DNA of 40,199 bases from a virus. Shown here piece by piece: positions 19,739 to 40,199 of this stretch; the first letter of the stretch is position 1, and every line of letters starts with the position of its first letter. The notes under the pieces were generated by a model, which saw only the letters and a program-made list of their open reading frames with translations, did not search any database and was not told the origin of the DNA. Location of the stretch: IMG/VR virus record IMGVR_UViG_3300045988_042083, positions 1 to 40,199 of that record. One strand, written 5' to 3'. A program made the position numbers and the translations under genes.

Positions 19739-19935
19739 GAGCGTTAGCATACATAGTTGCGTTTATATGTGGATTGTTTATCCGCAGCGCAATTTCGGCG
19801 TTGAATGGTTGGGGTTATTCAATAAATGGCATAGACCTGTTATGTGGGTTAGTCTGCATAGTTATGGTGTGGTCATTCAAAGGCGTATTCTTGACGAATA
19901 AGAAACCGAATAAGAAACGGAGGAACAACAAATGA
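19735..19935 (+). CDS. 66-aa small membrane protein with two predicted TM helices.
   Basis: ATGA overlap with the previous gene. MRALAYIVAFICGLFIRS...IDLLCGLVCIVMVWSF, then a basic tail. Confidence 0.55.
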   Translation: MRALAYIVAFICGLFIRSAISALNGWGYSINGIDLLCGLVCIVMVWSFKGVFLTNKKPNKKRRNNK

Positions 19936-20891
19936 TAGCGGTACAGCCAAGTGCACAGCTGGTAACCGGGTATGAAAACCGACCCGAAGAATTGATTGAA
20001 TTGTGTGGGAGAATTTGCTACGACTCGCAGGACAGAATAGAGCCGGGCAGTGCTAGAAAATTCTGCGAAAAGCTGAAGAAGAGCGGACACACTAGCGCGT
20101 TTGAACATGCAAATGTTATACTTGAGGTGTCCGCGCTGACGTATTCATCTATTCGACTTTCAGCGCAGAGTTACGAGGAAATGACAGGTCTACCCGCTTA
20201 CATACGCTTCGACACGTTTAAAAATCACAGGCGACATTTTGTGTCCGGCAACGTTAGGGCTTGGGTTAACATGTTTGATGGTTTATCCACGGTCTTCGGA
20301 GAGATACCACCATGCGTGTTGGACGCGATGGACGCATCAAATATGTGTTCACCGCTATTCGACACTGGTATATGGAGAAAGTCTACATGGCATCACCGAA
20401 GCATGGATAAAACCCGCAAAGCGGCAGTCATCAGTTGTAATGAATTACCGAAATGGGCGCGTGAACGACACACCACAGCCACATTTTTCATCACCTGTGA
20501 CAGGGGTGTATCTCATGAGTTAGTCCGGCATCGGACGGCAAGCTTTTCACAACAATCTACAAGGTATTGTAAAGCCAATAAAGATGGTAACATCGGATAC
20601 ATCATGCCGTCAGTGCAATGTATCAGTGATTCCAATAACTGGAGGCGTGTAAATGCTTCTATATTCGATGCTGAAACCCGATATAAGGCTATGCTGAAAG
20701 ACGGGGCTTCACCACAGATAGCGAGAGCCGTGTTGCCCACGTGCCTCGCAACCAAGCTTTACATGACTATGACTATTGAGCGGTGGCGTGATTTCTTGGA
20801 ATTGCGGTTAGACCCGGCAGCACACCCGGATATGCGGGTGATAGCTGAACAAATCCAGCAACAGTTGTTTCCTAAGGGGGTAAAGTCATGA
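19932..20891 (+). CDS. thyX: FAD-dependent thymidylate synthase ThyX.
   Basis: ThyX signature RHRTASFSQQSTRY. 319 aa. Confidence 0.9.
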   Translation: MIAVQPSAQLVTGYENRPEELIELCGRICYDSQDRIEPGSARKFCEKLKKSGHTSAFEHANVILEVSALTYSSIRLSAQSYEEMTGLPAYIRFDTFKNHRRHFVSGNVRAWVNMFDGLSTVFGEIPPCVLDAMDASNMCSPLFDTGIWRKSTWHHRSMDKTRKAAVISCNELPKWARERHTTATFFITCDRGVSHELVRHRTASFSQQSTRYCKANKDGNIGYIMPSVQCISDSNNWRRVNASIFDAETRYKAMLKDGASPQIARAVLPTCLATKLYMTMTIERWRDFLELRLDPAAHPDMRVIAEQIQQQLFPKGVKS

Positions 20892-24751: not shown

Positions 24752-25369
24752 TTGAGCATAAAGCAAAGATGTGAAGTGAAGCCTTGTTCATATGACGATG
24801 TTAAGCCATTTATACTCAACGTCCATTATGCACACACTATGCCTACTTCTATAATGTATCGGTATGGGTTGTACGACTGTGATAGATTGGTGGGAGTGGT
24901 TACATATGGCAGAACCGCAGCGCCCGCTCCAAGTGTCGGAATGTTTGGGAAGCAGGAAAAGCATCGCGTGATAGAGCTTAATCGGTTGGTTTTATTGCCC
25001 GAATACAACGGCGACAACTATACGTCTTACTTAGTGAGTCATTCGTTGAAGATGTTGCCACGGGGGCTTGGCGTTATTTCTTATGCTGATTTAGGCGGTC
25101 AGGGTCACACAGGTGGTATTTACAGGGCATGCAACTTTCTGTACACCGGAACTACCAAACCGCGCACTGATGCCGCTAGCGTAAGCGGGGGTCATGCTAG
25201 ACATTACCAAGGTGATTTAACTAAGCGTCAATTAAGAACTGCCAAGTGCAGGTATGTAACGTTCACTGGTACAAAAAGGGATAAACGAATGTTGAGAAAG
25301 ATGCTTAGGTGGGAAGTGAAACGGTACACCCCAAATGAAAGGACGAACCATGATAACAGTAGTCGGTGA
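24752..25369 (+). CDS. Mom-like (adenine-N6 acyl-modification family) protein; tentative.
   Basis: PFILNVHYAHTMP, VIELNRLVLL, VISYADLGGQGHTGGIYRACNFLYTG. This matches my recollection of the pattern annotated as the Mom family. TTG start. Confidence 0.45.
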   Translation: MSIKQRCEVKPCSYDDVKPFILNVHYAHTMPTSIMYRYGLYDCDRLVGVVTYGRTAAPAPSVGMFGKQEKHRVIELNRLVLLPEYNGDNYTSYLVSHSLKMLPRGLGVISYADLGGQGHTGGIYRACNFLYTGTTKPRTDAASVSGGHARHYQGDLTKRQLRTAKCRYVTFTGTKRDKRMLRKMLRWEVKRYTPNERTNHDNSSR

Positions 25370-25766: not shown

Positions 25767-26191
25767 TGGATACATCATTACTCCACTATTGGGTTGAGGT
25801 TTTGGGGCTTGAGTCGTGGACTATCAAGTTGGTGGTGGATTGCAGCCCTAACGACATGACGCTGGCAAACGTAGCTGGTGAGGCAGAGTGGGACGCGACC
25901 AGCAGGTCAGCAATTATTCGAATTCTTGACCCCAAGGATTATGGCGACAGAATAGTGCCGTTTGACCCGGAAAAGACCTTAGTACACGAGTTACTGCATC
26001 TGAAATTCGCCATGCTTGACGAAAGCGGTGATAACCTTAGAGATAGGTTAACCCACCAAATAATTGACGATTTAGCCAAGGCATTGGTGAGAGCGAAGAG
26101 AGATGCTTCTCCCGGAGAAAAGAAGAGTTATCTTGTAGTAGACGGTGTTGCGAAGAAACCTACAAAGGAGGATTCCGATGAAGTACATTGA
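25766..26191 (+). CDS. HEXXH-motif protein (putative SprT-like zinc metallopeptidase fold, 141 aa).
   Basis: TLVHELLHLKF. TGATG start overlap after AAGGAGGG. Confidence 0.5.
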   Translation: MDTSLLHYWVEVLGLESWTIKLVVDCSPNDMTLANVAGEAEWDATSRSAIIRILDPKDYGDRIVPFDPEKTLVHELLHLKFAMLDESGDNLRDRLTHQIIDDLAKALVRAKRDASPGEKKSYLVVDGVAKKPTKEDSDEVH

Positions 26192-26369
26192 GCCGGGTTG
26201 CTTGTATTGTAGCAAATGCATCTTGGTTACGCCAGTACACGGGTATGGTGATGCACCGTATTACAAATGCAGCGATGACAGAAATCCCGAAGAATGCGAA
26301 GTGTGCAAACACAACATCAACAAGAATTGCGCGAAAGGAAATACAAAGCATGAGATACATGGGCGGTAA
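26178..26369 (+). CDS. 63-aa Cys-rich (zinc-binding-like) protein.
   Basis: RBS AAAGGAGG. CLYCSKC...YYKCSDD...CEVCKHNINKNC. Confidence 0.55.
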   Translation: MKYIEPGCLYCSKCILVTPVHGYGDAPYYKCSDDRNPEECEVCKHNINKNCAKGNTKHEIHGR

Positions 26370-27098
26370 GTTTAGACAGAGCAAGGCGATAGTACAATGT
26401 TTAAGACCATATTTCAACGAAAACACAATGTATGTTGAGCCGTTCTGTGGTGGAATGTGGTCTGCATGTCGTGTAATTGACGAATTGCATCCGAAGTCTG
26501 TTATTCTTAACGACATTAATAAACCGTTAATGTTGCTGTGGGATAAATGTATAAAGGACGGTGTAGATTGGTTACCCACGGATTCTGAAGTTGTGGAGCG
26601 CGAGTATCAGAATTATCGGTTGGTGCAAGACGAAAACGACCCGTTAACTGCATGGTATGGCATAGCACTATCTTTCGGCGGTAAGTGGTTTGGTGGTGTC
26701 GCGCGAAACTCAAAAGATGACCACACACACACGGGTATATTGCAGAACGCAAGTCTGTGTATAAGAAAGTCGATGCGTTAGCACGAGCGACTCCGAAACT
26801 TGTGAATGTAAGTTATGAACATCTGGACATACCGGACGGCGCAGTGGTATACTGCGACCCACCATACGCCGGGCGGACTAAGGCACACCATTTTGATAGC
26901 TGGGACGATGACGCTTTTTGGCAGTGGGTGCGCGACCTGTCAATGCGGTGTACAGTTTTTGTGTCGTGCTTCAACTGTCCGCCCGATTTTGAAACGGTGT
27001 ATAGCTGGGGCGATACGGTGGTGGGGCATCTGAACAGCAGAGGAACAGACGGTACATGTGAAAGGTTGGTGAGATATGATGCCGCTGAAAAAAGGTAA
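26350..27098 (+). pseudogene. dam: Dam-like N6-adenine DNA methyltransferase split by a frameshift inside a (CA)5 tract.
   Basis: N-terminal MRYMGGKFRQ...VEPFCGG (26350-26781). C-terminal ...VVYCDPPYAGRT... (frame of 26757-27098). Removing one CA unit fuses both frames into a 248-aa ORF. Confidence 0.75.
26722..26732 (+). repeat. Dinucleotide tract C(AC)5 at the Dam frameshift point.
   Basis: gatgacCACACACACACggg. Confidence 0.9.
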
Positions 27099-28603: not shown

Positions 28604-29161
28604 ATGACAAGCAAGGAGGAATTTAAATCCATCGCGGAACTTATTCACCGCGATGGTATTACCGATTTGATGAAGTGGATTGAGGGCACGGATTTCTACA
28701 CTGCACCAGCATCGACCCGGTTTCATGGGGCGTATGAGGGTGGACTTGTAGAGCATTGCGTAGCAGTGTACCGCCGTCTGGACGAGTTGAATGACTTCTA
28801 TGACGAGGTAAACGCAACTCCCGAAACCATTGCAATTGTGGCGCTGTTTCACGATTTGTGCAAAATTGGGACGTATAAGACCGAAATGCGCTGGCGAAAG
28901 GACGCGAACAACCAGTGGGAGCAATACCCCACTTACAAGCGCGATGAAGATTTCAAGTTTGGTGGTCACGGTTCGAAATCGCTTTATCTGGTGCAGAACT
29001 TCATCAAGTTGACCCCCGAAGAGGCTATTGCGATTAACTGCCACATGGGGCAGTGGGACGCGACTACATACAGCGATGTTTCTTCGGCGTTCGAAAGTTG
29101 CCCGTTGGCATGGGCATTACATGTGGCTGACGAAGCCGCAAGCTACCTTGATAAAACATAA
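28604..29161 (+). CDS. HD-domain phosphohydrolase (185 aa). Candidate dATP-clearing enzyme (DatZ analogue).
   Basis: STRFHGAYEGGLVEH, ALFHDLCK, GGHGSKS, LHVADEAAS. ATG follows GGAGGAGGTGATAGC. Confidence 0.7.
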   Translation: MTSKEEFKSIAELIHRDGITDLMKWIEGTDFYTAPASTRFHGAYEGGLVEHCVAVYRRLDELNDFYDEVNATPETIAIVALFHDLCKIGTYKTEMRWRKDANNQWEQYPTYKRDEDFKFGGHGSKSLYLVQNFIKLTPEEAIAINCHMGQWDATTYSDVSSAFESCPLAWALHVADEAASYLDKT

Positions 29162-30890: not shown

Positions 30891-32660
30891 ATGCTGGTAA
30901 ACACAATAGAGGGGCTTGAACATGTGATGCCCCGGCTGTTAGCTTGCACCGACCCTTGCGTGGATACCGAAACTACTGGCTTGTCGATTTACGGCAACGC
31001 CAGTAGGGCGAGGGATAAAGTTATCGGCATCTCGGTTGACGTTGGCGAAGAAGCTTTCTATTTTCCGTTTCGCCACCTACAGGGGGTAAATTTGCCGATG
31101 GGGTGTATGGAGTTCTTTCGCCCGTATCTTTCAGACCCTAATAGGACTTATGGCGGGTGGAATTACAATTACGACCTCCACATGATGGCTTTCGATGGTA
31201 TTGACATCGCGCCAAATTTTGAAGACGCGATGCTGGCTATGCACCTATTCAACGAGAATGAACCCGATTTCAAGCTAAAGCCAACTGCCGACAGATATCA
31301 CATCGGCGATGGTTCTTTGCAAGAGTCGATACTTGAGGACAAGGTGTTCAACGAGTGTCAGCGGCTGGGGCTGGAGTGCAGCAAATCACCAAGAGCACCG
31401 AACAACGTTAAATCTATGATGTACGTATTGCCCCCGGAGGACGTAGAACCTTATGCTTGTGATGACGTGCGGCTTACACGTCAAATCTTGGATTTGCTGC
31501 GACCCGCATTAAAGGAACAGGGGTTGTATGATATCTGGAAACAGGTTAACTACTATTCTTACATAGTCACGTTGATGGAACATCGCGGTATGCATGTTGA
31601 TGTTGACATGATAAAGCGATACCAGATAGAAGCAGTAGACCACCTCGCGGACGCGCAGAAGCGGCTGAATGAAGCGGCTGGGTTTGAGTTAAACCCAAAT
31701 AGTTCAAAAAAGGTTTGTGAATTTCTAGGCGTGGAATCATCAGCGGCTGAAAAGCTTGTGGAGGTGATAGACGCGGGTGGGAAAGATGCCGAAAATGCTA
31801 AATTGGTGCAGGAAGCTAGAGGTTGGAAATCAGTGGACAGCAGGTATTACACACCTTATCTCCAGTTGATTGACGAACACGACACGCTCCACTGTTCGCT
31901 GAACTTAATCGGTACGTACACCGGACGGTTATCATGCACCAACCCGAACCTGCAAGCAGTGGCGAAGCATACAGATATCTTCAAAGTCAAGGACGTGTTC
32001 ACAGCACGACCCGGTTTTACAATGATACAGGCGGACTACAAGCAAGCGGAAATGCGTCTTGTGACGCATTACACCAAAGACCCCATCATGAAAGAACTAA
32101 TCGAATCTGACGCGGATTTGCACTCGGCAACGGCTGAAAGGCTGAATATACCGCGAAATGCAGCTAAGCGCATTAACTTCTCCGTTATATACGGCATCGG
32201 GTACAAACACCTTGCCAGCAATCTTCGGGTAGAAGAGAGCGTAGCCAAGGATTATCTCGATAAGTACCACAATCTCTACCCCGGCTTTAAGAAGCTCATG
32301 TACAAATGTGAAGACTTCGCCAAAGCTAATGGGTATATTAGGCTGTGGACGGGACGAATGCGGCATTTCAACACGCCGGAGTGCGACCCCCATAAGGCAA
32401 TGTCAAACTTAATACAGGGCGGCGTTGCTGAAATTGTCCGCGTGGCAATATCCAGACTTTATCCCGCTATTCGGGATATTGGAGGGAACATGCTACTGCA
32501 GGTTCACGACTCAATCATCTTTGAAGTACCCGATGATAAACTCCAGATAGCCTTACCGACCATTAAGATGGTTATGGAGGATTATGACTTCGACCCCAAA
32601 CCCGGTGTCGATATCGAATATGGCAAATCATGGGGTACATTCGAAAAGTGGAAGCCATAA
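30891..32660 (+). CDS. Family-A DNA polymerase with a 3'-5' exonuclease domain and no 5' nuclease domain (589 aa).
   Basis: ExoI VDTETTGL. Motif A ADYKQAEMRL. Motif B RNAAKRINFSVIYG. Motif C LQVHDSIIFE. Confidence 0.9.
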   Translation: MLVNTIEGLEHVMPRLLACTDPCVDTETTGLSIYGNASRARDKVIGISVDVGEEAFYFPFRHLQGVNLPMGCMEFFRPYLSDPNRTYGGWNYNYDLHMMAFDGIDIAPNFEDAMLAMHLFNENEPDFKLKPTADRYHIGDGSLQESILEDKVFNECQRLGLECSKSPRAPNNVKSMMYVLPPEDVEPYACDDVRLTRQILDLLRPALKEQGLYDIWKQVNYYSYIVTLMEHRGMHVDVDMIKRYQIEAVDHLADAQKRLNEAAGFELNPNSSKKVCEFLGVESSAAEKLVEVIDAGGKDAENAKLVQEARGWKSVDSRYYTPYLQLIDEHDTLHCSLNLIGTYTGRLSCTNPNLQAVAKHTDIFKVKDVFTARPGFTMIQADYKQAEMRLVTHYTKDPIMKELIESDADLHSATAERLNIPRNAAKRINFSVIYGIGYKHLASNLRVEESVAKDYLDKYHNLYPGFKKLMYKCEDFAKANGYIRLWTGRMRHFNTPECDPHKAMSNLIQGGVAEIVRVAISRLYPAIRDIGGNMLLQVHDSIIFEVPDDKLQIALPTIKMVMEDYDFDPKPGVDIEYGKSWGTFEKWKP

Positions 32661-32748
32661 CAGAATACACCTCCTGTCGCAGAGAGGGTATCTTCCTTGC
32701 ACAGGAGGGTATACATACGGGCTTACATACTCCCACAACACAGACGTG

Positions 32749-32779
32749 CAACGGAGCGCAAGAGAGATACCTCTCCGTG
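32749..32779 (+). repeat. Dispersed motif copy in the polA-HAD spacer, with its own ACGGAG/CTCCGT hairpin.
   Basis: CAACGGAGCGCAAGAGAGATACCTCTCCGTG. Confidence 0.75.
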
Positions 32780-32816
32780 CACGCGATGCCGGACACCTAT
32801 TAAGGAGGTGGTAACA

Positions 32817-33221
32817 TTGATTATAGCGGTGGATTTTGATGGTGTTCTCTGCGACCACCAATTTCCAAATATCGGTGCGCCGAAATACGAAGTCATCTCG
32901 TTGGTGCGGCAGCTGATTGACCTTAAGCAAGAGGTAGTTCTCTGGACATCGAGAACAGATGCCGAACTGCAAAATGCGGTAGATTGGTGTGACAATTACG
33001 GCTTACATTTTTGCGCCGTGAACGAGAACGCGCCAAGCAACATCGCCAAATATCGGGAGAAATACCCGAATGGAACACGAAAGGTATTTGCTGATGTTTA
33101 TGTTGATGACCATTCACTTGGCTACATAATCAACAGAAAAGCGGACACAACAAAAAGCATAACAGCACAGTTAAGTGCTCTTATAACAGTAATCAAATCG
33201 ACACAGGAGGAAAAGGTATGA
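32817..33221 (+). CDS. HAD-superfamily phosphatase-like protein (134 aa), possibly a deoxynucleotidase.
   Basis: TTG start after TAAGGAGGTGG. Motif I IAVDFDGVL, then VLWTSR and a YVDD-type motif. Its stop overlaps the purZ ATG. Confidence 0.55.
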   Translation: MIIAVDFDGVLCDHQFPNIGAPKYEVISLVRQLIDLKQEVVLWTSRTDAELQNAVDWCDNYGLHFCAVNENAPSNIAKYREKYPNGTRKVFADVYVDDHSLGYIINRKADTTKSITAQLSALITVIKSTQEEKV

Positions 33222-34315
33222 ACACAAACAGAGGTAAGATGACAGTAGTTGTCGGCGGACAGTACGGCAGCGAGGGTAAGGGTGCGATTGTAAGACACAT
33301 CGCGGACGAATATCAGGTGCATGTTAGGGTTGGTAGCCCTAACGCAGGACACACTATCTACTGGAACGGCGAGAAACACGTCATGCAGTCTATCCCTTGT
33401 GGGTGGATAAACCCCGATGCAAAGATAGTGATTGGTAGAGGTGCGCTGCTCAACATGAAGCAGCTCATGTCCGAACTGGAACACATCGAGAGATACTACC
33501 CCGACTTCAAAAAGCGTCTTTACATAGACGCTAAGGCGGGTATCCTTGACGAGAAATTCCACCAGCAGGAGGGTGGGGTAGACGGCGAAATGCACCGCAG
33601 GATAGGCTCTACTGGTGAGGGTGTGGGTGTTGCCCGTGTTGCCCGTATAAACCGTGACCCGGAGCAGTTCCACATGTTTGAAAGCGTAGCTGACGAATAT
33701 GGGCTGTCCAAGTGCATTACCGACAACACACCCGAATTGCTTGCCAGATGGCAGGGCGATGGTATGAATATACTGATTGAGGGAACACAGGGGTCTGCGC
33801 TTTCTCTGCTCCACAGTTTTTACCCGTACTGCACCAGCATCGACACCAATGCGGCAGGTATCATCTCCGAGGTAGGCATCGCCCCGTCAAGGGTAACTGA
33901 TGTATTGATGGTGGTACGCACATTCCCCATCAGAGTTGCAGGAAATTCTGGACCTATCGCGAATGAAACCACATGGGAAGAAGTGTCAAAGCTGGCGGGA
34001 AGACCTGTCACCGAGAAGACCACTGTTACGCACAAGACCCGCCGTGTGGCTTTCTGGGACGATGCCGTATTCGAAACGGCTTGTCTGCTGAATGAGCCGA
34101 CAGAAATTGCGCTCACATTCGCCGACTACATCGACCCCGACCTTGCTAATATATCTGGAAATGTACCGTCTATCGAAGCACTGCAGAGTTCCAAGCTTTC
34201 TGCTTTCATCGACAGCTGCTCTGCCGAATTAAAGGAAAAGCTTCGGTACATCAGCACAGGCGCAGATTCCGTAATCAACATCAACAAGCCGGAGGCACAG
34301 AACGATGGCGAATAA
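33218..34315 (+). CDS. purZ: PurZ-like N6-succino-2-amino-2'-deoxyadenylate synthase (PurA superfamily, 365 aa).
   Basis: GGQYGSEGKGAIV, GSPNAGHT, GTQGSALSLLHSFYPYCTSIDTNAAG, FPIRVAGNSGP, TTVTHKTRRVAFWD. Confidence 0.8.
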   Translation: MNTNRGKMTVVVGGQYGSEGKGAIVRHIADEYQVHVRVGSPNAGHTIYWNGEKHVMQSIPCGWINPDAKIVIGRGALLNMKQLMSELEHIERYYPDFKKRLYIDAKAGILDEKFHQQEGGVDGEMHRRIGSTGEGVGVARVARINRDPEQFHMFESVADEYGLSKCITDNTPELLARWQGDGMNILIEGTQGSALSLLHSFYPYCTSIDTNAAGIISEVGIAPSRVTDVLMVVRTFPIRVAGNSGPIANETTWEEVSKLAGRPVTEKTTVTHKTRRVAFWDDAVFETACLLNEPTEIALTFADYIDPDLANISGNVPSIEALQSSKLSAFIDSCSAELKEKLRYISTGADSVININKPEAQNDGE

Positions 34316-34745
34316 TGTGAAATATGTTGATTTCGTTCTTGACGAGGGTGCACACCGCCCCGTCAAGCAACACACAGGCGATGCGGGTTGGGATTTGTAC
34401 ACCAGCGAAACCTGCGTTATCGAACCCGGTGAAACCAAAGATGTGCATACAGGCGTGAGAATGCGCATGCCGCCTTGCCTCTTCGCCCGTATCACGGGCA
34501 GGTCATCGAGCCTCCGCAAGCACAACATTCTAGTGAACGAGGGCATTATCGACAACGGCTACACGGGCGAGTTATTTGTCTGCGCTCACAATCTCGGAAA
34601 TCAGCCCATCACTATCGAAAAGGGTATGCGGATTGCACAGGTACTTTTCCACACCATAGAAGATGTGCGTTGGAGCGAGGTTGACGAATTAAAACCCTCC
34701 GCAGATAAGCGTGGGGACGCTGGTTTCGGTAGTACTGGAAAGTGA
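34305..34745 (+). CDS. dut: Trimeric dUTPase.
   Basis: GDAGWDLY, GRSSSL, GIIDNGYTGEL, RGDAGFGSTGK. Confidence 0.9.
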   Translation: MANNVKYVDFVLDEGAHRPVKQHTGDAGWDLYTSETCVIEPGETKDVHTGVRMRMPPCLFARITGRSSSLRKHNILVNEGIIDNGYTGELFVCAHNLGNQPITIEKGMRIAQVLFHTIEDVRWSEVDELKPSADKRGDAGFGSTGK

Positions 34746-34793
34746 CGGCAATCGGGCTTGAGTAAGAGGACTCTGTAAGTAGTTGATAGTGGA

Positions 34794-34826
34794 ACAATAA
34801 CCCGATAATAACCGGACAATAACAGG
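34794..34826 (+). repeat. 3 x 11-nt tandem repeat ending within the RBS of the next gene.
   Basis: ACAATAACCCG ATAATAACCGG ACAATAACAGG, then AGG. Confidence 0.85.
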
Positions 34827-34834
34827 AGGACAAC

Positions 34835-35236
34835 ATGAAGAACTGTAAGGAATGTGACGATTTTATGTGCGGCGGACAGGGTTCAGACAATGTTTCTATG
34901 ACATGTGGAAACACCACGCGTGAATTTAAGGATTTCGGCACTGGTGCAATACGCGAGGATAAGACCGGAAAGGGCAGGTGCGACCTGCTCCCACCGTGCG
35001 CTCTCATTCGCCTTTCTAAGCATTTCGAAAAGGGTGCGACAGACCACGGAGAACGCAACTGGGAAAAAGGCATACCGATGCACAGCTTCTTGGATTCCGC
35101 ACTTCGTCACCTGTTCAGGTATCTTGACGGAATGGACGATGAAGACCACCTTTGCGCAGCCGCTTGGAACATAATATGCGCCATGTGGACAGAAGAAAAG
35201 CACCCCGAAATGCAAGATATCCCCACGCGCAGGTGA
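34835..35236 (+). CDS. mazZ: MazZ-like dATP/dGTP diphosphohydrolase domain protein (133 aa).
   Basis: RCDLLPPCALIRLSKHFEKGATDHGERNWEKG...LDSALRHLFRYLDGMDDEDHLCAAAWNIICAMW. Matches my recollection of the dGTP_diPhyd_N/DUF5664 pattern. Confidence 0.65.
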   Translation: MKNCKECDDFMCGGQGSDNVSMTCGNTTREFKDFGTGAIREDKTGKGRCDLLPPCALIRLSKHFEKGATDHGERNWEKGIPMHSFLDSALRHLFRYLDGMDDEDHLCAAAWNIICAMWTEEKHPEMQDIPTRR

Positions 35237-35240
35237 GCCA

Positions 35241-35546
35241 ATGAGCAACCGCAACAAACGATTGGAATATGATGGGGTAGTGCAACCGATACTGCGCTAC
35301 CTCAATTCTCTGCCGAATACCAAGGCAATCAATATTCACGGGGGCGTTTTCTGTGAGCGAGGAACGCCAGACATCATAGGGTGCATTGATGGGCGTACTA
35401 TACTGCTAGAATGCAAGAGAAGCCCAACGGAAGCGGCAGAAAAAATACAGGAGTGGCGCATGGCGGAGTGGCGCGGTGCAGGTGCAATCGTGGCTAGGGT
35501 TGACGATGTTAGCCAAGTCAAAGAATTGCTTGAGAAGAACAAATAA
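35241..35546 (+). CDS. VRR-NUC-type PD-(D/E)XK nuclease (101 aa).
   Basis: RGTPDIIGCIDGRTILLECKRSP...QEWRMAEWRGAGAIVARV. Confidence 0.65.
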   Translation: MSNRNKRLEYDGVVQPILRYLNSLPNTKAINIHGGVFCERGTPDIIGCIDGRTILLECKRSPTEAAEKIQEWRMAEWRGAGAIVARVDDVSQVKELLEKNK

Positions 35547-35569
35547 GGGTGGGGATTTATCCCCCACCC
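35547..35569. terminator. Bidirectional intrinsic terminator between the convergent plus and minus transcription units.
   Basis: GGGTGGGGAtttaTCCCCCACCC, flanked by AAATAA on one side and TCGTTTATT on the other. Confidence 0.8.
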
Positions 35570-35573
35570 TCGT

Positions 35574-35876
35574 TTATTCGATGTTGTTAACTTTTCGCAT
35601 AACCGCGTTGTATAGCCGTGGATTTGTAGCTTGCAGAGTAGTCATCAGTTCGTCAACCACTGCAAACACCTGTACACTGTCCTTACCCGACACAGCTTGC
35701 AAAAAGTCCGTGTTGCCGCTCACATTAAGCGGTACGGGCTGGACAACGGGTGTGGCGTTTGTGAGATGGTCACGAACAACATAGAGTGGTGCAAGTTTTT
35801 CTATAACTGAATACGTGGTATCGCGTTTTGTTTCCAGCATCAAAATCTCGTCATTTATAGTGTCAAGGTTTAGCAT
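35574..35876 (-). CDS. 100-aa hypothetical protein; last gene of the accessory block.
   Basis: Intact ORF ending 5 nt from the terminator. Confidence 0.55.
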   Translation of the reverse strand: MLNLDTINDEILMLETKRDTTYSVIEKLAPLYVVRDHLTNATPVVQPVPLNVSGNTDFLQAVSGKDSVQVFAVVDELMTTLQATNPRLYNAVMRKVNNIE

Positions 35877-35899
35877 GATGCACCTCCGCTGTCACAGCC

Positions 35900-36469
35900 T
35901 TAGCACATCTTAACCCCGATATGCTTCGCCTTTTTCTTGTATTTTTCATGCATTTCGGGTTGACACAAGTAGATGGCAGATAAGTCGTAGTCTGTTGAAC
36001 TAAGTTCAATCCGCTTACGGCACACCTTTTTCAACTCTTGGTCTACGCATTCCACAAGCTCACCTATTTTGTGCGCCGCAGCTATCTCACCAAGCTCCAT
36101 GAGGTCACAATATGCCTTTTCATAAAGCTTTTTGGTTTCGACTTCCCACTCGTACCAGCGGTTGAAACCGTCACGGATAGCCCTTTTCTTGGTGTTTGCG
36201 TCAACGTCATGGCGCATGTACCCATACCATGATGCGGGCATTACTTCGGGGTTCTTCGCCGTTTCTTCGGGTAAAAGCTTTCCGAAATGGTTTACATAAT
36301 ACCTAACGATGCCCCGGTGTTCGGCAAATTCACACATCGCATGGTACTCATGACAACGCTTGAAGCCGTGCAGATTGAGAAAGTCGTAATACTCCGCAAA
36401 CTGGCTGTGGAGCATAACGCCCTCAATCATGTGGCTGCTTATTTTCGCGAAGATTTCTGCTACTGTCAT
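35900..36469 (-). CDS. 189-aa ferritin-like four-helix-bundle protein; tentative.
   Basis: RBS GGAGGTG. HSQFAEYYDFLNLHGFKRCHEYHAMCEFAEHRGIVRYY resembles ferritin helices A and B. Later segments YEWEVE and ELVECVDQELKK. Confidence 0.5.
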   Translation of the reverse strand: MTVAEIFAKISSHMIEGVMLHSQFAEYYDFLNLHGFKRCHEYHAMCEFAEHRGIVRYYVNHFGKLLPEETAKNPEVMPASWYGYMRHDVDANTKKRAIRDGFNRWYEWEVETKKLYEKAYCDLMELGEIAAAHKIGELVECVDQELKKVCRKRIELSSTDYDLSAIYLCQPEMHEKYKKKAKHIGVKMC

Positions 36470-40015: not shown

Positions 40016-40199
40016 GATGTACCTCACTTTCCAAATCTTCAATGCGGTGGTTGATAACTTTTATCTGCTCTTCAACCACTGGCATACGCCGCGCGAAGTT
40101 GTTATGCTCCGCAACCCTAGCCTCAAGCTGTTGTAACCGATAATTCGTCAATTTGCTGCTGACGAGTATACCACCCAACGAGCCACCAAGCGTCCCGAC
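40005..40199 (-). CDS. 3' part of the 76-aa TM + coiled-coil protein whose start lies at 155 (the same gene wrapped by the circular junction).
   Basis: ...RRMPVVEEQIKVINHRIEDLESEVHREI*. Stop TGA at 40005-40007. Confidence 0.6.
   Translation of the reverse strand, partial: VGTLGGSLGGILVSSKLTNYRLQQLEARVAEHNNFARRMPVVEEQIKVINHRIEDLESEVHREI
40081..40199. repeat. Second copy of the 119-bp terminal repeat.
   Basis: Identical to 1-119. Confidence 0.95.

Follow-up and report, generated by a model that had tools for sequence, protein, structure and literature searches.

What does a short gene near the end of a phage replication operon contribute when its neighbours resemble genes for Z-DNA, in which 2-aminoadenine ("Z") takes the place of adenine? 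The question is raised by positions 1 to 40,199 of IMG/VR virus record IMGVR_UViG_3300045988_042083 (40,199 nucleotides, hereafter the window), and specifically by an open reading frame (ORF) at 34835..35236 on the + strand that encodes 133 amino acids and a stop codon. An initial annotation had read this gene as a MazZ-like dATP/dGTP diphosphohydrolase and the second component of a Z cluster, quoting from its product RCDLLPPCALIRLSKHFEKGATDHGERNWEKG, RHLFRYLDGMDDEDHLCAAAWN and the N-terminal MKNCKECDDFMCGG...MTCG, all of which agree with the translation. From the ORF list, the sequence and the PF18909 match described below, we conclude, at a probability of roughly 65%, that the product is a standalone DUF5664 deoxynucleoside triphosphate (dNTP) pyrophosphohydrolase with a fused N-terminal module of four cysteines, and that, by analogy with a characterised relative, it would act in a PurZ-linked gene cluster.

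Family membership and probable activity

The protein is a member of the DUF5664 family. The profile comparison proposed in the initial annotation returned PF18909 (dGTP_diPhyd_N, formerly DUF5664) with E=3e-21 and a score of 75.7 bits, residues 40-128 aligning to profile positions 5-98 of 99; since the gathering threshold of this Pfam entry is 27 bits, the match lies far beyond chance. PHROG 18716 (3.8e-45) and phrog_801, named 'dATP/dGTP pyrophosphohydrolase' (1.4e-19), were matched as well. The putative catalytic core (34952..35218, + strand, residues 40-128) is delimited by Pfam, by an alignment of 63 sequences, by AlphaFold2 (AF2) and by BFVD, and the protein keeps the residues that are invariant in that alignment (G37, P53, N75, G79, R91, H92, G99, H105 and D128) together with the near-invariant R48, D50 and W76. 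Metagenomic relatives 98% identical to the protein have the same architecture; a megablast of window positions 33000-36000 against isolated phages gave zero matches.

The AF2 model was built with 63 diverse sequences and has a mean predicted local distance difference test (pLDDT) of 79.2, an earlier run with 23 close homologues (57.7) having been discarded. The model is helical, with a pLDDT of 86-98 across residues 50-130 and helices predicted at residues 54-71, 82-97 and 105-122. Compared with BFVD, it yields 32 matches at E<1e-3 with a query-normalised template modelling score (TMq) of ~0.6; 24 of the 32 are named as DUF5664-domain proteins or dATP/dGTP diphosphohydrolases, and the other eight are unnamed or named differently. 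The predicted fold of the core thus agrees with that of other DUF5664 family members.

The nearest characterised relative is the DUF5664 protein of Arthrobacter phage Wayne (ALY10775.1, 'DUF5664-1'; Poubanne et al., NAR 2026, PMC12884076). Purified and supplied with Mn2+, it converts dATP (kcat 0.48 s-1, Km 20 uM), dUTP and dGTP to the corresponding dNMPs (PMC12884076), and conversion of dATP, dGTP and dUTP to dNMP and pyrophosphate (PPi) is known only for this protein and for the fusion protein of Acinetobacter phage SH-Ab 15497 (PMC12884076). Because the window protein is 34% identical to the Wayne protein over the whole domain (E=3e-12) and retains all of the residues shared by the Wayne and SH-Ab domains (D50, N75, W76, R91, H92, D101, E103, H105 and D128), a metal-dependent cleavage of dNTPs to dNMPs and PPi is its most likely activity. 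The dATP/dGTP diphosphohydrolase reading of the initial annotation is in this sense supported, by the strong PF18909 match, by synteny with a purZ-like gene and, through analogy, by the activity of the Wayne protein (PMC12884076).

On the Wayne model, the enzyme would use a divalent metal (Mn2+ or Mg2+) to cleave dATP to dAMP and PPi, and would cleave dUTP and dGTP more slowly. Removal of dATP would exclude adenine from the phage DNA, and the dGMP produced would be the substrate of PurZ, to be condensed with aspartate on the way to dZTP, which the enzyme itself would presumably spare. A neighbouring Dut-like enzyme would duplicate this activity in part; the Wayne DUF5664 protein likewise acts in parallel with a Dut-like enzyme, 'DutZ' (PMC12884076).

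The likeness to Wayne extends to gene context: in each phage, a PurZ0-type synthetase and a Dut-like enzyme are encoded close to a standalone PF18909 protein, and the two PF18909 proteins have the invariant residues in common. The Wayne protein differs in carrying an unrelated N-terminal extension of 95 amino acids instead of the four-cysteine module, in belonging to an actinophage clade that lies apart from the window protein in a neighbour-joining (NJ) tree, and in the placement of its gene between purZ0 and dmtZ-dutZ, whereas the window has no DmtZ. The SH-Ab 15497 dATP/dGTP diphosphohydrolase (AUG85482.1, 'MazZ-2'; 385 amino acids) has a PF18909 domain at residues 3-98 that is homologous to the window protein (26% identity, E=2e-4), and its gene immediately adjoins purZ. 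Unlike the window protein, it also contains a PF04447/DUF550 domain (residues 170-244), and its cluster includes DatZ as well as a DpoZ that passes the NCBIfam cut-off.

A strong Shine-Dalgarno sequence, AGGAGG, can be read at 34824..34829 (+ strand), 5 nt before the ATG at 34835, and this first ATG is therefore taken as the start, which makes the cysteine module part of the protein. Directly 5' of this ribosome-binding site, at 34794-34826, stand three perfect tandem 11-nt units (AYAATAACMSG). They are kept with one substitution in the related contig L002 and are missing where the gene abuts its neighbour; they are a local feature, their count over the whole window not being above chance. A structured regulatory element in the 89-nt spacer 5' of the gene was considered and rejected (RNA fold z-score 0.36, no credible + strand promoter).

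The PurZ-linked cluster and the possible origin of its DUF5664 gene

Two genes 5' of the DUF5664 gene lies a gene for a PurZ-like adenylosuccinate synthetase homologue (33218..34315, + strand, 365 amino acids; PF00709, phrog_1211). Its product carries the motifs GSEGKG, in which Asp13 is replaced by Ser, IRVAGNSGP, which is identical to that of PurZ0, and TTVTHKTRR, which fits the pattern TTVTxKxRR; the guanine motif NKxD has been lost, with LTFADY where TKLD stood, a pattern common to PurZ0 and PurZ. Scores of 180 bits against Ghobes PurZ0 and 150 bits against Wayne PurZ0, compared with 118 bits against SH-Ab PurZ, place it nearer to the PurZ0 proteins, and judged from its motifs and from the profile scores given below it may represent a deep-branching PurZ lineage. 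Between the two, overlapping the stop codon of the purZ-like gene, is a gene for a homologue of trimeric dUTPases (34305..34745, + strand, 146 amino acids; PF00692 at 1.5e-28), a candidate DutZ that is 44% identical to Ghobes DutZ and 39% identical to the C-terminal domain of Wayne DmtZ-DutZ. Among the top phage matches of this Dut-like protein are PurZ0 actinophages, but also phages of Streptomyces that do not belong to the known PurZ0 set. A DutZ-type Dut stands next to purZ0 in all 98 PurZ0 genomes (PMC12884076).

The gene order PolA-x-PurZ-Dut-DUF5664-101aa is kept in five diverged metagenomic phage groups (contigs L002/3, L004-6, L007/8, L018 and L021). Identity to the window in the groups compared is 68-98% for PurZ and 76-98% for DUF5664, and in the two diverged groups measured PurZ is 68-71% identical. 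A metagenomic association study found, on dZ-modified contigs, a direct link between PF18909 and the adenylosuccinate-synthetase domain (10.1101/2025.10.22.683976). Of the initial claim that co-occurrence with purZ speaks for a Z genome, the co-occurrence itself stands, given a PurZ-like gene with the Asp13 to Ser change two genes upstream and synteny in five groups; the DUF5664 family is, however, common in phages without purZ, so that a Z-specific role rests on context. The cluster is a divergent PurZ0/Wayne-style arrangement and is likely to be a Z cluster.

The closest relatives with an isolate or genome behind them point to where the gene may have come from. The closest sequenced-isolate relatives of the window core are Gp_7 of Bacillus phage vB_Bacillus_1020A (72% core identity) and gp39 of Faecalibacterium phage FP_oengus (54%); both have a 'DSGxRRxF' type N-terminus and no four-cysteine module, and neither the complete genome of 1020A nor the 40 kb examined of the 58-kb FP_oengus genome contains purZ, dut or PolA. 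The DUF5664 protein of a prophage in a Clostridiales metagenome-assembled genome (MAG; 67% identity) and the relative on metagenomic contig L019 likewise have no purZ in their surroundings, and a profile search of genome contigs for DUF5664 found three loci, with purZ at none. Since the closest isolate and genome relatives occur without purZ, the enzyme is not Z-specific. To judge by the names of their ENA records, other relatives may stem from the guts of humans, pigs and ruminants.

Gp_7 of vB_Bacillus_1020A (MT210152.1, L001:1768-2151; QIW89281.1) is annotated as 'endodeoxyribonuclease RuvC' yet matches PF18909 (E=4.6e-24), and on this evidence it is probably misannotated in GenBank.

In an NJ tree of 172 DUF5664 cores, calculated with no bootstrap, the PurZ-linked proteins group in a derived clade next to Bacillota phage proteins of canonical context (no purZ). 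The window clade lies far from both the Wayne DUF5664-1 group and SH-Ab DUF5664-2 and falls in neither published Z-phage clade, DUF5664-1 being that of the PurZ0 Arthrobacter phages and DUF5664-2 the form fused to DUF550 in PurZ phages (PMC12884076). Core identities show the same contrast, at 34% to Wayne and 26% to SH-Ab against 72% to the Bacillus phage protein. This nesting beside relatives without purZ, far from Wayne and SH-Ab, suggests a further, separate recruitment of DUF5664 into a Z-type cluster, which would mirror the convergent pattern already described for these enzymes (PMC12884076).

The four-cysteine module and the weighing of alternatives

Residues 1-25 of the protein (34835..34909, + strand) form what we call the Cys4 module, with cysteines at positions 4, 7, 12 and 24 (CxxCx4Cx11C) and the consensus MKxCKxCxE[FY]xCGxxG[ST]Dx[IV]SxxCG. 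The initial annotation had described the cysteine-rich N-terminus as foreign to the family, and it is indeed absent from most members: about 20 of 127 close cluster representatives carry it, scattered over the PurZ-linked clade, and it is missing from several otherwise near-identical proteins (P0006 compared with P0025, for example). Close homologues on L004 and L021 hold the same cluster position without it, and on L021 no remnant was found in the upstream sequence; the module is therefore dispensable for the role in the cluster. Where it is present, it appears to be maintained: between the window and L007, its 25 codons comprise 8 identical, 9 with synonymous and 8 with nonsynonymous changes, and every cysteine is kept. 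Across the ~20 representatives, too, it is conserved as protein through many synonymous changes. The segment is therefore a module on which purifying selection acts, and no artefact of start-codon choice.

The Cys4 module is also mobile, and not a peculiarity of the window protein. An exhaustive search of 1.84 billion representatives with its profile recovered 22 proteins, in which it always occupies residues 1 to ~30, and most of these continue into unrelated C-terminal parts (DUF3850, several PHROGs of unknown function, or a short tail); examples beyond the window are P0167-P0187, L022:6001-6489, L026:7001-7183 and L027:6001-6342. Three module-bearing genes with identifiable neighbours lie among early or replication genes; the phages or prophages that carry them are unrelated, purZ is absent from the vicinity, and a fourth is on contigs too short for its context to be judged. 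No entry covers the module in Pfam, PHROG or PDB searches, the last made also with the module profile, and AF2 confidence over it is low. The module is probably a promiscuous accessory mini-domain that binds metal (Zn, or possibly Fe-S) and that catalysis does not require.

Other cysteine-rich segments occur in the same family. A second, C-terminal module (CxC..CxGTKE..CxCGGDxxKCDFY) is found on ~15 close DUF5664 homologues, among them P0008, P0009, P0014, P0017, P0021, P0026, P0061 and P0087 (e.g. L007:8001-8645), sometimes alongside the N-terminal Cys4 module, and homologues of the P0064 type have a different cysteine-containing N-extension.

How far the name 'MazZ-like' used in the initial annotation applies depends on which enzymes are meant. 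In the literature MazZ denotes enzymes of the MazG-HisE fold, of the S-2L type (MazZ-1) or the DUF550 type (MazZ-2) (PMC8342488, PMC12884076), and were the window protein a true MazZ of either type it would be a (d)GTP/dATP pyrophosphohydrolase with an EExxE...ExxD metal site. In favour of the name is homology to the N-terminal DUF5664 domain of the SH-Ab enzyme (26% identity), from which the UniProt/Pfam domain name is taken, and the helical bundle predicted for the core would suit such an enzyme. However, PF18909 alone was detected in the window protein, with no match to PF04447 or a MazG Pfam domain in a search that recovered both PF18909 and PF04447 from the SH-Ab 15497 control, and hhalign gave a probability of 0.1 for the DUF5664 profile against each of S-2L MazZ and the SH-Ab DUF550 region. 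Neither the protein nor the 63-sequence profile, searched against PDB sequences, produced a usable match or a solved structure for any DUF5664 relative. Foldseek with the AF2 model found nothing significant in the PDB, every match having E>1, although 6 of the 37 weak matches belong to the superfamily of all-alpha NTP-PPases: two chains of 7ody (S-2L MazZ), 3cra (E. coli MazG), 2yxh, 2p06 (target-normalised score, TMt, 0.61) and 2oie. Cyanophage S-2L MazZ (PDB 7ODY; MazG-HisE fold, MazZ-1) resembles the window protein in its proposed supply of dGMP to PurZ and in the position of its gene next to purZ (PMC8342488), but it is (d)GTP-specific, has no detectable sequence or profile similarity, and compares structurally at a non-significant TMq of 0.25 (E=4.6). 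The invariant residues R48, D50, N75, W76, R91, H92, H105 and D128 differ, moreover, from the classical acidic motif of MazG. A true MazZ is thus disfavoured, to the point of being very improbable, and 'MazZ-like' is a loose name for a protein that, by its domain content, carries DUF5664 only. As for the all-alpha NTP-pyrophosphohydrolase domain named in the initial annotation, the modelled core is helical, but the structural matches of MazG type are not significant, and membership of DUF5664 in the MazG superfamily can be called plausible.

Several observations weigh against placing a DUF5664 pyrophosphohydrolase in a PurZ-linked pathway. The characterised enzyme is only 34% identical to the window protein, to whose subfamily the activity is assigned by analogy, and the adjacent Dut-like enzyme could render its function redundant. 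The PurZ-like protein scores 247.6 bits on the NCBIfam PurZ model NF038379, under the cut-off of 300 that Ghobes (346), Wayne (367), SH-Ab (421) and S-2L (350) all pass, and it scores slightly higher on an archaeal-type PurA model (269). The family A DNA polymerase (30891..32660, + strand; PF00476, with a 3'-5' exonuclease domain, PF01612) is not a recognised DpoZ, reaching 172 on DpoZ_1 (cut-off 500) and 51 on DpoZ_2 (cut-off 350), models which the Wayne and SH-Ab polymerase controls pass. No DatZ was found in the window: an HD-domain metal-dependent phosphohydrolase (28604..29161, + strand, 185 amino acids from the ATG at 28604; phrog_28876 at 3e-56) was considered as a YfbR-like HD dATPase and rejected as DatZ, since it matches the generic PF01966 alone and has no similarity to SH-Ab DatZ. 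PurZ0-type clusters are normally without DatZ (PMC12884076), and the HD protein, kept in four of the five related phage groups, may be a functional analogue for dATP removal. The closest isolate and genome relatives of the DUF5664 protein, finally, are those described above from Bacillota phages without purZ in their surroundings.

These relatives lend weight to a different reading, in which the protein is a general pyrophosphohydrolase that cleans or shapes the dNTP pool (for example by dUTP/dATP sanitation feeding ThyX), derives from ordinary Bacillota phages and has no dedicated role in Z-DNA, its adjacency to purZ reflecting the usual grouping of nucleotide-metabolism genes. Such a role would suit phages and prophages whose 54-72% identical proteins occur without purZ, dut or PolA, the nesting of the PurZ-linked proteins beside those of canonical context, and a core identity to the Bacillus phage protein (72%) that nearly equals that to PurZ-linked relatives (76-80%); ThyX is, furthermore, encoded in the window. 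We nevertheless regard it as unlikely, because linkage to purZ is seen in all five contexts examined in the derived 'TGAxRE(D/N)K' clade, where the gene has a fixed place after dut, because the Wayne protein hydrolyses exactly those dNTPs that are relevant to Z synthesis (PMC12884076), and because PF18909 is statistically associated with dZ contigs (10.1101/2025.10.22.683976). Less probable still is an enzyme with another substrate (modified or signalling nucleotides, or NTPs), or a protein that is mainly a targeting or regulatory subunit, which the Cys4 module would dock, together with other early proteins bearing it, onto a shared partner from host or phage. The occurrence of the module on unrelated early phage proteins, the differing cysteine-rich N- or C-terminal modules on the DUF5664 cores of close relatives, and the slow turnover of the Wayne enzyme compared with Dut (PMC12884076) would fit this proposal; against it are the retention of all family-invariant residues, the orthologues that hold the same locus without the module, and the fact that no partner is known. 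We therefore retain the reading of a dNTP pyrophosphohydrolase acting in a PurZ-linked cluster.

Operon context and significance

The first 100 nt of the window are repeated exactly from position 40080, giving a terminal overlap of 120 nt (1-120 / 40080-40199) and therefore a circularly closed assembly of ~40,079 bp, so that the window probably represents an entire phage genome. The - strand carries the structural and lysis genes. A rightward replication and nucleotide block encodes ThyX, an SNF2 helicase, a primase-helicase, a Mom-like protein, a D12 methyltransferase, a PD-(D/E)XK nuclease, the HD phosphohydrolase, an AAA_24 protein, a DUF669 protein and PolA, and closes with the sequence PolA, HAD-like ORF, PurZ-like, Dut-like, DUF5664 and a 101-amino-acid protein, the DUF5664 gene being second-last. 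The last gene of this operon (35241..35546, + strand), directly 3' of DUF5664, is endonuclease-like (phrog_93 at 1.4e-11), and a gene for 101-103 amino acids directly follows DUF5664 in all five PurZ-linked phage groups. A bidirectional terminator-like GC hairpin, found by a terminator scan at 35546..35571, marks the point where the + and - strand blocks converge.

Between the polymerase and purZ-like genes lies an ORF of 174 amino acids (32697..33221, + strand; phrog_1238, phrog_415) of HAD phosphatase type, which scores 92.9 bits on the NCBIfam model of the BT0820-family HAD phosphatases, under the cut-off of 165. As a candidate DmtZ it was rejected, having no similarity to DmtZ; in the relatives, compared by position only, the slot is filled by an unannotated ORF of 119-167 amino acids. 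This protein could work downstream of Dut and DUF5664 as a (d)NMP nucleotidase, in the place that DmtZ takes in actinophages.

Earlier in the block, 24752-25369 and 26188-27098 encode a Mom-like DNA-modification protein and an N6-adenine methyltransferase of the D12 (Dam) type, the latter seemingly split into two overlapping ORFs; adenine-N6 modifiers are a curious presence in a genome predicted to lack adenine. Neither Pfam family occurs at that position in the near-identical L002/L003, and other methyltransferases lie within the cluster of relatives (a C5-MTase in L007 and a D12 MTase in L018). The ThyX homologue (19932-20891) has a Thy1 domain only over residues ~179-312 of 319, preceded by a long N-terminal extension.

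A DUF5664 gene beside purZ is an already published component of the Z-DNA pathway, and in this respect the core finding confirms and does not discover. New is the presence of a Z-type cluster in ~40-kb phages that appear to be gut-derived and to infect Bacillota, a host group not found in recent reviews of Z-phages, and with it a PurZ-like enzyme and a polymerase that fall outside the current curated PurZ and DpoZ models. New, too, is the Cys4 tag, a mobile module that lacks annotation and stands at the N-terminus of unrelated phage proteins, and hence a tractable small domain. A bolder synthesis, which we offer tentatively and hold to be rather doubtful, would make the window a member of a third, previously undescribed lineage of phages with Z-DNA (or a related purine modification), infecting Bacillota hosts in human and animal guts. 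Its independently assembled toolkit would consist of a deep-branching PurZ-like enzyme with scores between archaeal PurA and PurZ, a PolA that is no recognised DpoZ, a Dut-like enzyme, a HAD phosphatase and a DUF5664 protein drawn from local phages without purZ, and Cys4, a new mini-domain binding metal (Zn or Fe-S), would be attached promiscuously to many unrelated early proteins of Firmicutes phages, possibly to dock them on a common partner.

A compact dATP/dGTP pyrophosphohydrolase of 100 residues could serve the engineering of Z-DNA synthesis in cells. If the genome contains Z, the window polymerase would be a third kind of Z-tolerant PolA, and the cluster as a whole would widen the known diversity of Z-genome machinery and add to the case for convergent recruitment of pool-editing enzymes.

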